Below are positions 6,471 to 24,352 of a DNA stretch of 64,000 nt, one piece after another. This stretch comes from Escherichia phage SP27: the sequence record LC494302.1, one strand, 5' to 3'. The notes under the pieces are model-generated. The model made no database searches, had not been told where the DNA came from, and saw nothing but the letters and a program-made list of their open reading frames with translations. The position numbers and the translations under genes are program-made. Position 1 is the stretch's first letter, and each line of letters starts with the position of its first letter.

Positions 6471-6530
6471 TTGCACCGTACTGATAAAAGCGTATAATGT
6501 TTTACATCGAGAGCGGGAACACTTCCCGCT
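6471..6530 (+). promoter_or_regulatory. early promoter + 5' hairpin cassette
   Basis: TTGCAC 6471-6476 /16/ TATAAT 6493-6498; hairpin AGCGGGAA-CAC-TTCCCGCT 6512-6530. Confidence 0.75.
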
Positions 6531-8040: not shown

Positions 8041-8122
8041 TTTAGTATAGTTACAATTGTGCACCCGGTGGGTTAGCTGTTGTCATGGGGTATATTATGC
8101 CAGTACTTGATAATGCTGTCAA
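8041..8122 (-). ncRNA. short promoter-driven noncoding unit (unit e), convergent with unit d
   Basis: Minus strand TTGACA (rc 8117-8122) /17/ CATAAT (rc 8094-8099); reads ...GCTAACCCACCGGGTGCACAATTGTAACTATAC. Confidence 0.45.
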
Positions 8123-8169: not shown

Positions 8170-8197
8170 TTGCAAACTATGTTTAAAGGCGTATAAT
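8170..8197 (+). promoter_or_regulatory. early promoter (upstream of conserved leader)
   Basis: TTGCAA 8170-8175 /16/ TATAAT 8192-8197. Confidence 0.7.
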
Positions 8198-8203
8198 GTT
8201 TTA

Positions 8204-8287
8204 CATCAGGACGGGGAACGAAATAAGTAACTTCCCGTTAAGTAGCCCAGGAGTAAGGCACACGAAAAACTCCCCTGATAAAATAGT
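8204..8287 (+). ncRNA. conserved leader or short RNA of about 80 nt between tandem promoters
   Basis: No ATG; hairpin ACGGGGAA...TTCCCGT; near-identical copy at 19180-19260 with a compensated stem. Confidence 0.45.
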
Positions 8288-8315
8288 TTGACAATTGTTT
8301 TTAAAAGCGTATAAT
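8288..8315 (+). promoter_or_regulatory. sigma70-like promoter
   Basis: TTGACA 8288-8293 /16/ TATAAT 8310-8315; ATG 8348. Confidence 0.7.
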
Positions 8316-8347: not shown

Positions 8348-8959
8348 ATGAAAACTATCACTACTACTACTTATGTTATGGCTTTTTCTGAATTGAACGC
8401 AGAACAACAAACGTCAGCTATCGAACTGGTTCGGGAACGTGAAAAAAACTTAAACGATGATTATTTTTCTGAAAGTGAAATTGAATACTATAAAGAAACA
8501 GTACTACCGGAATATGGCATTAATGACGCTGAAATACAATTCAGTGGCTTTTGGTCCCAGGGTGACGGTGCATCAATCAGTACTGACCACGTTGACGCAG
8601 TGAAGTTTTTACGCAAGGTAAGAGCATTAACTAAGTATCGCTCAATCCGTCACTTGCTGAATGAAGATGATTTGGCGATGAGTGTAAAGCGTTCGCACTC
8701 CCACTACTCGCATGAGAATACTGTAAGCGGGTACATTGAATCGGCTTACACTGATTTAACCGCAAAACAAGAAACGTTAGTTAATGAGCTTGAGGAACTA
8801 CTCACTGAAACTATTCGTGAATTATCCCGCAAGTTGTACCGTGATTTAGAGAATGCATATGAGGATCAATTCACTACTGAAAACATTACGGCACTGATTG
8901 AGGGTAACGAATATCAATTCAATGTTATTGATGGAGTAGTAGAATCAATCGAATATTAA
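8348..8959 (+). CDS. hypothetical protein
   Basis: 203 aa; SD GAGGG; acidic; contains FSGFWSQGDGA motif that I cannot assign to a named family. Confidence 0.85.
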   Translation: MKTITTTTYVMAFSELNAEQQTSAIELVREREKNLNDDYFSESEIEYYKETVLPEYGINDAEIQFSGFWSQGDGASISTDHVDAVKFLRKVRALTKYRSIRHLLNEDDLAMSVKRSHSHYSHENTVSGYIESAYTDLTAKQETLVNELEELLTETIRELSRKLYRDLENAYEDQFTTENITALIEGNEYQFNVIDGVVESIEY

Positions 8960-10421: not shown

Positions 10422-10455
10422 CGCGGGGAGATAATAACTCCCCGTTACTTTTTCA
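10422..10455. terminator. intrinsic terminator (possibly bidirectional)
   Basis: CGGGGAG 10424-10430 / CTCCCCG 10438-10444 then TTACTTTTT; A/T-rich on both sides. Confidence 0.7.
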
Positions 10456-11540: not shown

Positions 11541-11566
11541 AGCCCACCAGGTGGGCTTTTTTGTTT
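11541..11566 (+). terminator. intrinsic terminator
   Basis: AGCCCAC-CAG-GTGGGCT 11541-11557 followed by TTTTTTGTTTTT. Confidence 0.85.
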
Positions 11567-11616: not shown

Positions 11617-11644
11617 TTGACATTACCACAGAAAAGCGTAGAAT
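11617..11644 (+). promoter_or_regulatory. sigma70-like promoter with long leader
   Basis: TTGACA 11617-11622 /16/ TAGAAT 11639-11644; leader of about 115 nt begins CATCAAGACGGGGAGCAC, loosely like the 8204 and 19180 leaders. Confidence 0.6.
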
Positions 11645-11767
11645 GTATTACATCAAGACGGGGAGCACTAAGTAGACCGCCAGTAAGTCGAACGAAAAAC
11701 TGGACACGTCGAGAAAACTTTGATACACTAATAAACGTAAACTAAACTTTAATTGAGGATTTATAAA

Positions 11768-12250
11768 ATGGCTAATGTAAAATCATTCATCAAAGCACTG
11801 GTAGCAAATGAAACTAACGTCGCGGCTGAGATCCTGGCTGAACTGGATAACGATACCATGAAAGCGGTACGCAATAATTTTAACATCGCGTACAGTACTG
11901 CGAAAGAACTACAAGCAAATAAAGCGGCAGAAATTGAAGCGGCAAAGGCGGCCCGTGAAGCAGAACTACAAGCAACAATCGAAAGTATCCAGGCGGCGGT
12001 GTCTGGATTGGATCTGGAAGTGGTTGTGGAAATGGCACATAAAGCCCTGGCGGTTAAGTATGGTGAAGATAAGCCAGAATCTAAACCTAAAAAATGGATT
12101 CAAGAACGTGTTACTGTAGTACTTGATAACGGGGAAGAACATATGATTCCTGTACGCGGTAACTGCATTGCGGTAGTACTGGACGCTATCAAAGAAAGCG
12201 GTATGACTCGCGAGGAATGGATCGAAGCTCATCGCAAAGTTGAAGCATAA
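11768..12250 (+). CDS. hypothetical protein (Ala/Glu-rich helical segment)
   Basis: 160 aa from MANVKSFIKALV; SD GAGGA; AAEIEAAKAAREAELQATIESIQAA. Confidence 0.8.
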   Translation: MANVKSFIKALVANETNVAAEILAELDNDTMKAVRNNFNIAYSTAKELQANKAAEIEAAKAAREAELQATIESIQAAVSGLDLEVVVEMAHKALAVKYGEDKPESKPKKWIQERVTVVLDNGEEHMIPVRGNCIAVVLDAIKESGMTREEWIEAHRKVEA

Positions 12251-12271: not shown

Positions 12272-12299
12272 AGCCCACCTTAAACAGTGGGCTTTTTTG
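12272..12299 (+). terminator. intrinsic terminator
   Basis: AGCCCAC 12272-12278 / GTGGGCT 12287-12293 then TTTTTTG. Confidence 0.85.
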
Positions 12300-14983: not shown

Positions 14984-15075
14984 AAAGTGGTTGACTTCGG
15001 TCAGCCATTTTGCTATTATATATTCATTGAGAGATAGCTCACTAGCCCACAGGGTGCAGGAGTGTATCTATTGTA
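14984..15075 (+). ncRNA. short promoter-driven noncoding unit (unit g) with promoter embedded in a terminator-like hairpin
   Basis: Hairpin TGGTTGAC-TTCG-GTCAGCCA holds TTGACT 14991-14996 /17/ TATTAT 15014-15019; ...GAGATAGCTCACTAGCCCACAGGGTGCAGGAGTGTATCTATTG. Confidence 0.45.
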
Positions 15076-19015: not shown

Positions 19016-19105
19016 GAAAAAGGGATTGACTCCGGTCAGTCCCTTTGCTATTATATACGCATAGAAACAAATCAGCCCACCGGGTGCATAAATGTATCTA
19101 TTGTT
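19016..19105 (+). ncRNA. short promoter-driven noncoding unit (unit i), promoter embedded in terminator-like hairpin
   Basis: GGGATTGAC-TCCG-GTCAGTCCC holds TTGACT 19026-19031 /17/ TATTAT 19049-19054; CATAGAAACAAATCAGCCCACCGGGTGCATAAATGTATCTATTG. Confidence 0.45.
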
Positions 19106-19145: not shown

Positions 19146-19173
19146 TTGCATTGTACTTAGAATCAAGTATAAT
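19146..19173 (+). promoter_or_regulatory. early promoter (upstream of conserved leader)
   Basis: TTGCAT 19146-19151 /16/ TATAAT 19168-19173. Confidence 0.7.
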
Positions 19174-19179
19174 GTTTTA

Positions 19180-19260
19180 CATCAGGACGGGGAACGAAAC
19201 AAGTAACCCCGTTAAGTAGTCCAGGAGTAAGACATACGAAAAACTCCCCTGATAAAATAG
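19180..19260 (+). ncRNA. conserved leader or short RNA of about 80 nt between tandem promoters (copy 2)
   Basis: Near-identical to 8204-8287; stem ACGGGG...CCCCGT; no ATG. Confidence 0.45.
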
Positions 19261-19261
19261 T

Positions 19262-19289
19262 TTGACAATAGAAAGTAAACGAGTATAAT
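19262..19289 (+). promoter_or_regulatory. sigma70-like promoter
   Basis: TTGACA 19262-19267 /16/ TATAAT 19284-19289. Confidence 0.7.
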
Positions 19290-19322
19290 ACTTACATCAA
19301 CCACTGATAAGGAAACATAAAA

Positions 19323-19598
19323 ATGCGGATTCTACTGACAGCTAACGAAATCGAACAAGTACTGACTACTAACCTGGAAGACTGGAAACGTGAAGCAGAT
19401 ATCCAGGCGGTTCAATGGTTAAATGATAAGTTAACGCCGGATGACTTAAGCAAGATTGTAGATCCTCAATTCTACGAAGATATCCACGACACCGCGTTAA
19501 GCGTCGAGGATGTACTAGATAAGCACTTTATTGATACTGATTTGCAGGTTTACGGTCGTAAAAACTTTATCACTATTCACGACATTTACAATAATTAA
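19323..19598 (+). CDS. hypothetical protein
   Basis: 91 aa; SD AAGGAA; acidic; MRILLTANEIEQVL. Confidence 0.8.
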   Translation: MRILLTANEIEQVLTTNLEDWKREADIQAVQWLNDKLTPDDLSKIVDPQFYEDIHDTALSVEDVLDKHFIDTDLQVYGRKNFITIHDIYNN

Positions 19599-19601
19599 GT
19601 A

Positions 19602-19663
19602 TTGACAAAGTATCTTAGTACTGTATAATAGTTTACATCGAGTGAGGGGAAACGGTTCCCCTC
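19602..19663 (+). promoter_or_regulatory. early promoter + 5' hairpin cassette
   Basis: TTGACA 19602-19607 /16/ TATAAT 19624-19629; hairpin GAGGGGAA-ACGG-TTCCCCTC 19644-19663. Confidence 0.75.
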
Positions 19664-19686
19664 CTAACAAAGAGAGAGAAATAAAA

Positions 19687-22007: not shown

Positions 22008-22100
22008 AAAAAAGGGATTGACTCCGGTCAGTCCCTTTGCTATTATATATCCATTGAGAGATAACTCACTGACCCATAGGGTGCGGAAGTGTATCTATTA
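22008..22100 (+). ncRNA. short promoter-driven noncoding unit (unit j), promoter embedded in terminator-like hairpin
   Basis: GGGATTGAC-TCCG-GTCAGTCCC; TTGACT 22018-22023 /17/ TATTAT 22041-22046; ...GAGATAACTCACTGACCCATAGGGTGCGGAAGTGTATCTATTA. Confidence 0.45.
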
Positions 22101-24264: not shown

Positions 24265-24352
24265 AAAAAGGGATTGACTCCGGTCAGTCCCTTTGCTATT
24301 ATATACGCATAGACAAAAACTAGCCCACAGGGTGCATAGGTGTATCTAAAAT
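24265..24352 (+). ncRNA. short promoter-driven noncoding unit (unit k), promoter embedded in terminator-like hairpin
   Basis: GGGATTGAC-TCCG-GTCAGTCCC; TTGACT 24275-24280 /16/ TATTAT 24297-24302; CATAGACAAAAACTAGCCCACAGGGTGCATAGGTGTATCTAAA. Confidence 0.45.

Follow-up and report, generated by a model that had tools for sequence, protein, structure and literature searches.

Bacteriophage T7 has one of the best-studied genomes, and both the A1 promoter and the initial transcript made from it serve as standard tools. The stretch between the A1 and A2 promoters has apparently escaped description as a conserved RNA fold with covariation support; a search of open-access text returned no description of this RNA structure in T7, on which older papers could mention the conserved block. 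Here, a non-coding element is considered that occurs three times (copies A, B and C) in 64,000 nucleotides (nt) of DNA from Escherichia phage SP27 (LC494302.1), the whole of which is referred to below as the window. On comparative grounds, the window element and the T7 A1-A2 segment (nt 536-593) belong to one RNA family. The T7 leader (nt 498-595) has a homologous linker and pseudoknot, with a strong early promoter before and a second promoter after them. It differs in having an extra 5' domain (nt 499-534) and a 3' flank that pairs with the loop of a hairpin, P0 (GUCAA/UUGAC), whereas window copies A and B are closed via the 5' end of the transcript. T7 carries one copy, whereas the phage of the window carries three per terminal repeat.

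Other described systems share part of this design. The put RNA of phage HK022 is likewise a short folded non-coding RNA that lies just past phage early promoters and is transcribed by the host polymerase, but put consists of two stem-loops and not of a pseudoknot, whereas the element combines a hairpin with a pseudoknot. Mobile promoter cassettes of T4-type phages, the PeSL cassettes of Arbiol, Comeau and Krisch (2010), reportedly carry promoters and terminator stem-loops without a conserved structured RNA product. The window resembles them in that repeated early-promoter cassettes recombine and shuffle small early genes, with a 93% identical block common to an unrelated genus. The 5' pseudoknot of tisB and other knots that bind ribosomal protein S1 (a ligand from systematic evolution of ligands by exponential enrichment, rpsO, tmRNA and preQ1) are alike in being H-type knots near a 5' end; unlike in tisB, no structured ribosome-binding site that would need a standby site lies downstream in T7. 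The preQ1-I aptamer has the same strand order, size class and A-rich third loop, a resemblance only, since in the element the first stem is only 3 bp, the loop sequences differ, and there is neither an Rfam match at E≤10 nor an expression platform. Type III antitoxin RNAs (ToxI) and phage pseudo-ToxI are also pseudoknots of ~35 nt with an A-rich stretch, and a phage-encoded RNA that neutralises a defence nuclease has precedent (PMC3475682, PMC8860590). The element is unlike ToxI in that it occurs as single units (3-8 kb apart in the window) and not as tandem repeats, has its A-rich stretch within the knot and not at unit boundaries, and has no toxN neighbour and no Rfam match.

The conserved core of the element is an invariant linker, UAAGUAG, joined to a 29-31-nt H-type pseudoknot with a 3-bp stem S1, a 4-5-bp stem S2 and an A-rich loop, ACGAAAAA. 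From 5' to 3' the core reads UAAGUAG; one strand of stem S1, G-N-C, whose G is shared with the linker; 1-2 nt; one strand of S2, 4-5 nt; (N)UAA; G-N'-C; NNACGAA(A/C)AA; and S2'. The family consensus is UAA for loop L2 and NNACGAAAAA for the A-rich L3. It is the strand order S1-S2-S1'-S2' that makes the fold an H-type pseudoknot.

About 60 loci were collected by pattern scans of IMG/VR, metagenomes and GTDB genomes and then aligned. Among 24 distinct cores from at least four phage lineages, 94.8% of cells are paired and double-sided changes number 28, against 9.2 expected from shuffles; none of 500 shuffles reached the observed covariation, and when the 3' partners are slid by one column pairing falls to ~32%. 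Within the Autographiviridae alone (26 sequences, 7 of them from BLAST and not from the search pattern) both stems are paired throughout (100%). The middle S1 pair is A-U in T7 and copy C, U-A in copy B, L146 and yong1, C-G in copy A and L153, and G-C in L190 and JeanTinguely. Stem S2 occurs as GCCUG/CAGG(C/U), GCCAG/CUGGU, GCUUG/CAAGC, ACCUG/CAGGU and GGAG/CUCC, with a U-G wobble in L160, and indels are limited to loops. In Salmonella phage KE18 (L213, 264-322), a 20-nt insert in L2 forms its own hairpin (UCAGU-UGAAC-ACUGA) and leaves S1, S2 and L3 intact; structured RNAs typically evolve by such insertions. The sole exception seen in S1 is a C-A mismatch at the middle pair (GCC/GAC) in phage EmilieFrey (L001, 3031-3068), the close relative of which, outra, is paired (GCC/GGC).

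The preliminary description of this DNA had been made from the letters alone. It proposed that two near-identical segments, each lying between two promoters, encode a structured RNA, and suggested a covariance-model search. A core covariance model (R1) was run over both strands of the 64 kb with filters off and gave exactly three copies, with all S1 and S2 pairs formed in each, at 8239-8276 (53.1 bits), 11669-11706 (53.7 bits) and 19213-19250 (55.1 bits), the next-best match scoring 9.7 bits. The second of these had been suspected as a looser relative following the promoter at 11617, and is a true member. The same model gives 59.7 bits for T7 551-589. The pseudoknot is beyond what R1 can model, and the E-values are approximate; family members score 45-65 bits, and five chance pattern matches without complementarity score 15-28 bits. 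Freeing the outer two S1 positions in the search pattern brought 11 extra loci, all below 16 bits, and no further true members, and loose pattern scans of IMG/VR returned chance matches only.

Copies A (8204-8287) and B (19180-19260) are identical in 77 of 84 aligned columns (91.7%), as the claim of near-identity requires. Their surroundings are far less alike, with 72% identity in the region of the first promoter (P1), 78% in that of the second (P2) and 54% over the first 153 nt of the downstream open reading frames (ORFs), which are effectively unrelated, as had been proposed. Only 4 substitutions separate the two copies, and two of these form a compensatory pair inside the pseudoknot, C8246-G8258 in A and U19220-A19232 in B. 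The position between two promoters also holds for both copies, with TTGCAA/TATAAT or TTGCAT/TATAAT before the segment and a perfect TTGACA-N16-TATAAT 8 nt after its end. The start of copy A is placed at A8205 by analogy with T7 A1, which starts 7 nt past the -10 and the transcript of which begins AUCGAG. The promoters and start sites of the window are consensus matches and predictions, none of them mapped; that of T7 A1 is annotated.

Taken as a whole, the segment very probably encodes a structured RNA that is under selection and belongs to the T7 A1-leader family, and each copy encodes the 5'-terminal folded domain, of ~75 nt, of a transcript from a predicted strong sigma-70-like promoter in the terminal-repeat early region. 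The proposal of a structured non-coding RNA is thus borne out as regards the + strand, the compensatory changes, the wobbles and the loop indels, but the part that is conserved is the pseudoknot with UAAGUAG, and not the first stem, which is variable and missing in copy C.

G-U wobbles, such as those at the outer S2 pair in 7 of the 26 Autographiviridae sequences, fit the + strand only, since each would read as an A-C mismatch in the complement. It follows that the + strand is what folds, most simply in the form of the transcript. This bears on the possibility that the segment has no function as RNA, and either belongs to the downstream promoter at the level of DNA (as an UP element or factor site) or is a neutral passenger of recombining promoter cassettes. 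An A-tract, ACGAAAAAC, does lie just upstream of the T7 A2 -35, the window is full of recombining promoter cassettes, and the T7 A2-A3 spacer resembles a degenerate duplicate. However, compensatory changes in four helices are explained neither by the binding of a protein to double-stranded DNA nor by drift, the wobbles are strand-specific, and the element is better conserved than the surrounding promoter spacers, a comparison subject to ascertainment bias. The gap from the element to the next -35 varies from 2 to ~45 nt across lineages, and in L153 a boxA-like sequence, CGCTCTTTAACAA, directly follows the element in place of a second promoter. Together, covariation, the variable distance and the replacement in L153 argue against a double-stranded DNA site for the next promoter. 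Absence of any RNA function seems most improbable, and is already largely refuted by the covariation. Modulation of the downstream promoter by the RNA, one of the roles first suggested, is not required by a family with such variable spacing and with L153 among its members. For another, an attenuator, there is no basis, as no terminator-like hairpin with a U-run was found directly after any copy.

By eye, the T7 A2-A3 spacer (L166, 660-706; CUUAAGCGCACCACGGCACAUAAGGUGAAACAAAACGG-UUGACA) resembles a duplicate of the A1-A2 element in which S2 has been lost. It was rejected as a second T7 copy, since it gives no covariance-model match.

The core is accompanied by helices that differ between lineages. 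Hairpin P0 usually ends 0-1 nt ahead of the linker; its sequence (CCGGGGUCAACCGG in T7) and length vary, it covaries, and it is 89-91% paired in the 26 Autographiviridae sequences. P0 is missing in copy C and in Erwinia phage Hallingskeid. In copies A and B it corresponds to what was initially called the first stem, said to differ between the copies and yet stay paired; a 2-nt indel does separate the copies there, and minimum free energy (MFE) folding recovers the stem. In the T7-like phages, the P0 loop pairs with 5-7 nt past the knot, after a 2-nt spacer. Five pairs of this helix are formed in 129 of 130 cells, with 6-9 double changes each, and a sixth, outer pair in 8 of 26 sequences. The pairs seen are GUCAA/UUGAC (T7), GUCAAG/CUUGAC, GUCAGA/UCUGAC, GUCAUC/GAUGAC, GUCGGU/ACCGAC, GAUUAG/CUAAUC and GCUAA/UUAGC; besides T7 (L166, 536-593), the helix is seen in L140, L146, L165, L192, L207-L210 and L214. 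Its 3' strand in T7 is formed by TTGAC from the -35 hexamer of A2.

In the versions from jumbo phages, the partner of the 3' flank is instead the very start of the transcript (AUCAGG/CCUGAU in A and B, CGGC/GCCG in Salmonella phage Munch, CAUC..CGG/CCG..GAUG in Hallingskeid). MFE folds of these versions recover the closing helices, P0 and S2, with z from -1.75 to -3.7. For copy A (-19.4 kcal/mol, z -1.75) the closing helix, P0 and S2 are all recovered, copy B has a z of -3.23, and the closing helix of copy C is weakly supported (z -0.27). The outer AUCAGG...CCUGAU, which had been thought able to close the whole element, is recovered in both A and B. Pairing of the 3' flank back to the P0 region was thus found in the T7-like phages and in A and B, and is weak in C. 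The outer helix is thus real in A and B, and it sets a clear 3' limit to the RNA domain, at 8279 and 19253, respectively.

Table 1. Positions of the three copies of the element and of the features that flank them in the window.
Feature	Position	Strand	Details
Copy A, promoter P1	8170..8197	+	-35 TTGCAA 8170-8175; -10 TATAAT 8192-8197; A/T-rich UP-like tract upstream; predicted start A8205
Copy A, RNA domain (75 nt)	8205..8279	+	closing helix AUCAGG 8205-8210/CCUGAU 8274-8279; P0 8211-8238 (arms 8211-8217, 8232-8238)
Copy A, linker and pseudoknot	8239-8245, 8245-8273	+	linker UAAGUAG; covariance-model match 8239-8276
Copy A, pseudoknot	8245..8273	+	S1 GCC 8245-8247/GGC 8257-8259; S2 GGAG 8250-8253/CUCC 8270-8273
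Copy A, pseudoknot loops			L1 CA; L2 UAA 8254-8256; L3 ACACGAAAAA 8260-8269
Copy A, promoter P2	8288..8315	+	TTGACA-N16-TATAAT; serves 203-aa ORF 8348-8959 (phrog_5162, function unknown)
Copy B, promoter P1	19146..19173	+	-35 TTGCAT 19146-19151; -10 TATAAT 19168-19173; predicted start A19181
Copy B, RNA domain (73 nt)	19181..19253	+	closing helix 19181-19186/19248-19253; P0 19187-19212; linker 19213-19219
Copy B, pseudoknot	19219..19247	+	S1 GUC 19219-19221/GAC 19231-19233; S2 GGAG 19224-19227/CUCC 19244-19247
Copy B, promoter P2	19262..19289	+	TTGACA-N16-TATAAT; serves 91-aa ORF 19323-19598 (phrog_14947, function unknown)
Copy C, promoter P1	11617..11644	+	-35 TTGACA 11617-11622; -10 TAGAAT 11639-11644; predicted start A11652
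Copy C, RNA domain (without P0)	11652..11724	+	linker UAAGUAG 11669-11675
Copy C, pseudoknot	11675..11703	+	S1 GAC 11675-11677/GUC 11687-11689; S2 CCAG 11680-11683/CUGG 11700-11703
Copy C, candidate closing pairs			GACG 11657-11660/CGUC 11707-11710; AUCAA 11652-11656/UUGAU 11720-11724
Gene after copy C	11768-12250		160-aa ORF; phrog_27871

BLAST with copy A matched 44 phage records. Beyond Asteriusvirus these include myoviruses of 137-147 kb at 90-93% identity, from Justusliebigvirus (EmilieFrey, outra, muut) and Vequintavirinae (A73, W70, A7_1, A5-4), in which the element again lies between two promoters, with different small genes behind. Copies A and B represent the variant found in these two groups. 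With copy C as the query, the core matches T7-like Yersinia phages at genome position ~553-587, as well as the jumbo phages Munch, 7t3 and SE_PL of Salmonella, fENko-Kae01 of Klebsiella and Hallingskeid of Erwinia; at each of these loci, a first early promoter is followed by that 35-nt core. The phrog_27871 gene behind copy C has homologues behind the element in Munch and Hallingskeid, and copy C is the orthologue of the copy in those phages. In T7 the core lies at nt 551-587, between the A1 start (498, as annotated in MZ318363) and the A2 -35 (589-594). A 55-nt T7 query matches 491 phage records, at one place each, including T7, T3, Kayfunavirus, T7-like phages of Klebsiella and Citrobacter, and Cronobacter phage GAP227 of another subfamily. 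The family has moved between unrelated coliphage lineages as a module of promoter plus RNA. Function could not be taken from the neighbouring genes, which differ among phages and all belong to families without known function.

A shared block of 510 nt, 19167-19675 of the window (RNA element, P2 and 91-aa gene), is 92.8% identical to 1487-1996 of muut (L007), a Justusliebigvirus of 146 kb, which indicates a recent horizontal exchange of early cassettes.

The segment is non-coding. As had been stated for ATG, the transcribed segment of A and B contains no start codon (ATG, GTG or TTG). Two small ORFs were considered and rejected: a + strand ORF of 31 aa (8196-8291) that starts within the -10 hexamer, and a - strand ORF of 20 aa (8201-8263). 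Neither is conserved, since the 2-nt indel breaks both frames in copy B. ARAGORN found no tRNA or tmRNA genes in the window, and Rfam 15 gave no match in the window at gathering thresholds and nothing on T7 400-1000; at E≤10 on short stretches, only a spurious Methylobacterium-1 match was returned, at 14.6 bits against a gathering score of 40. A pattern scan of the genome collection returned a T7-like phage contig only. Several resemblances were discarded. Mimicry of 16S rRNA, suspected by eye at nt 862-912 and 52-72, was no better in local alignment to rrsH/rrlH than shuffles (z ≤ 2.8). CsrA-type CAGGA motifs are present in A and B only, and are missing from copy C and the T7-like phages. A hammerhead-like CUGAUAA...CGAAA in T7 is not kept in its relatives and has no Rfam match.

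These searches bear on whether the element is a small-molecule sensor (a riboswitch-like aptamer) or a self-cleaving ribozyme. It is very small, with short covarying helices around invariant unpaired nucleotides and a double pseudoknot in the T7-like phages. Its strand order is that of preQ1-I (S1-L1-S2-L2-S1'-A-rich L3-S2'), and the loop pairing of the T7-like phages is faintly pistol-like. Against this, there is no Rfam match to preQ1, pistol, twister, hammerhead or any other family, even on short stretches at E≤10, and behind the element there is no terminator or sequestered ribosome-binding site that could act as an expression platform. To our knowledge, no self-cleavage has been reported in decades of in vitro work with T7 A1 transcripts. 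A sensor or ribozyme is therefore considered quite improbable.

What the members of the family share is their setting. The element is always on the sense strand, 18-55 nt past a strong sigma-70-like early promoter, at the end of the DNA that enters the cell first. In T7, A1 transcripts alone carry it, and in the window the P2 transcripts are without it. From its early 5' position, gene-independent spread, A1-only or P1-only carriage, conserved loops and dispensability in the laboratory, we tentatively favour, as quite possible, that the element is a self-contained, factor-binding immediate-early RNA gene, and not a control element of the gene behind it. The A1-only carriage in T7, the P2 transcripts without the element, the 3' boundary that is set by a helix to the 5' part and the placement of all copies in the terminal repeat speak for such a unit. 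The element RNA would be among the first made by the host polymerase from the entering DNA end. With its paired 5' end and compact fold, it might bind a host factor via its conserved unpaired nucleotides; loops that are as conserved as the helices are covarying point to a specific partner. This partner could be RNA polymerase, a defence protein, the 30S subunit or ribosomal protein S1. The last of these is a concrete choice, given its high affinity for H-type pseudoknots (PMC7708055). In binding its partner, the RNA might serve as a decoy or sponge, perhaps once it has been released from the read-through transcript by cleavage in the A/U-rich stretch behind. A stronger form of this proposal, which we regard as somewhat doubtful, is that a trans-acting, anti-host immediate-early RNA is the first product of T7-like, rV5-like and Rak2-like coliphages, and that it serves as a protein-binding double-pseudoknot decoy against a host or defence factor before any phage protein is made, spreading horizontally as a cassette of promoter and RNA, much as anti-defence genes do.

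Several points weigh against the proposal of a self-contained RNA. Most of the sequences came from a search pattern with 19 fixed bases or from BLAST searches in which the element was the query, so that ascertainment is biased, the conservation figures are inflated and divergent members are missed. No 3' end is visible in the sequence and no terminator follows the element; older work on T7 reportedly describes A1 transcripts that run on to the RNase III site R0.3. An evolved T7 line, del_holin_F20 (MZ318363, L195), grows on BL21 with A2, A3, genes 0.3-0.7 and the 3' half of the pseudoknot deleted, so the role of the element is accessory under laboratory conditions. As for mimicry of host or plasmid RNAs, including type III antitoxins, BLAST gave no match in 5,426 E. 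coli genomes and chance matches only in 72,556 PLSDB plasmids, and close mimicry of a host RNA is therefore excluded. Finally, copy C and L153 are without a strong second promoter, so that there the element is the 5' untranslated region (UTR) of the next gene, and a role in cis fits equally. In MZ318363, the deletion begins within the A-rich loop of the pseudoknot, past CACGA (nt 578), and extends as far as the early genes.

One role in cis would be that of a 5'-UTR module that raises expression of the downstream early gene from P1 transcripts, either as a stabiliser that, by its paired 5' end and compact fold, blocks entry of RppH and RNase E, or as a tisB-like standby or loading site that depends on ribosomal protein S1. 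For tisB, a 5' H-type pseudoknot recruits S1 and the 30S subunit, which provides a precedent (PMC7708055). Consistent with a 5'-UTR module, the 5'-most nucleotides of the transcript are base-paired in all lineages, other cassettes of the window likewise start with a 5' hairpin, and in copy C and L153 the element is in the sole 5' UTR of the next gene. However, a stabiliser needs no invariant loops, and simple hairpins serve in the neighbouring cassettes. In T7 the first ORF lies ~340 nt downstream, and past the RNase III cut at R0.3. The P2 transcripts, probably the majority, are without the element, and the downstream genes are mutually unrelated. We consider such a module unlikely.

The position of the element could also suit a cis-acting modifier of the host RNA polymerase that transcribes it, in the manner of HK022 put. 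Here, the nascent RNA would stay on the polymerase, which would then resist pausing, backtracking, intrinsic terminators and Rho, so that the lead polymerase reads through the early region and, in T7, perhaps pulls it in. The constant placement past a strong early promoter, in the sense orientation and at the first-entering end, is what such a modifier would have; terminator-like hairpins lie downstream of the copies at 10423, 11541, 12272 and 20794; the boxA-like sequence of L153 stands directly behind the element; and highly conserved unpaired nucleotides suit a specific RNA-protein contact. On the other hand, the T7 A2 and A3 transcripts do without the element, whereas the boxA-like sequence of T7 lies past A3 and is common to all three transcripts. 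By consensus scan, nearly every gene in the window has its own promoter, so little read-through would be needed. BoxA- or nut-like sequences in the window were not above chance, and T7 tolerates loss of the element on BL21. We consider a modifier of this kind doubtful, although action in cis on the polymerase or on ribosome loading is the chief alternative, and retain the self-contained RNA as the preferred, if tentative, reading.

The wider setting of the three copies was also characterised. With an 800-nt query around copy A, matches of 97-99% identity were returned from 35 jumbo phages that infect Escherichia and Salmonella and belong to the PBECO4/121Q/G17 group (Asteriusvirus, ~350 kb), and no record had more than 8 matching places. 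In one of the relatives, vB_Ec-M-J, the homologous region lies within an annotated direct terminal repeat of 21,525 bp, and by this comparison all three copies fall in the 21.5-kb terminal repeat. The window is thus the promoter-dense terminal-repeat early region of an Asteriusvirus (PBECO4/121Q-like, ~350 kb). A consensus scan found ~30 near-consensus sigma-70-type promoters of one cassette type on the + strand, at ~5-25 kb of the window. Each cassette has an A/T-rich upstream tract, TTGCAA or TTGACA, a 16-nt spacer, TATAAT and then GTTTTACATC. In Rak2-like relatives, RpoD-like promoters with UP-like elements have been reported in the early and terminal-repeat region (PMC5259590).

Some of the cassettes have features of their own. 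Predicted transcripts from those at 6506, 7644 and 12488 (and at L001 3114) begin AUCGAGAG(C/G)GGG, which is the initial transcribed sequence of T7 A1 (AUCGAGAGGG). A GC-rich 5' hairpin and a ribosome-binding site come next, and EmilieFrey has an identical leader. A 38-nt unit, AAAGGGATTGACTCCGGTCAGTCCCTTTGCTATTATAT, occurs four times (14984-15021, 19019-19056, 22011-22048 and 24267-24304); it is a 12-bp hairpin with a TTGACT -35-like hexamer inside and a TATTAT at promoter spacing after it, and could be a terminator and a promoter fused in a single cassette in the manner of PeSLs. GC-rich CCCACC(N)GGTGGG hairpins, in either orientation, are found upstream of the P1 promoters of copies A, B and C (8060-8080, 19075-19092, 11541-11557 and 12272-12293). 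Some have a T-run after them and look like terminators that end the preceding cassette.

In T7, the -35 hexamer of A2 also serves as a strand of an RNA helix, an overlapping code that could affect A1-A2-A3 constructs in vitro. More generally, the fold is found in hundreds of Autographiviridae and in unrelated coliphages of 140 kb and 350 kb, always among the first sequences transcribed from the entering end, which points to a general step at the level of RNA in the first seconds of infection.

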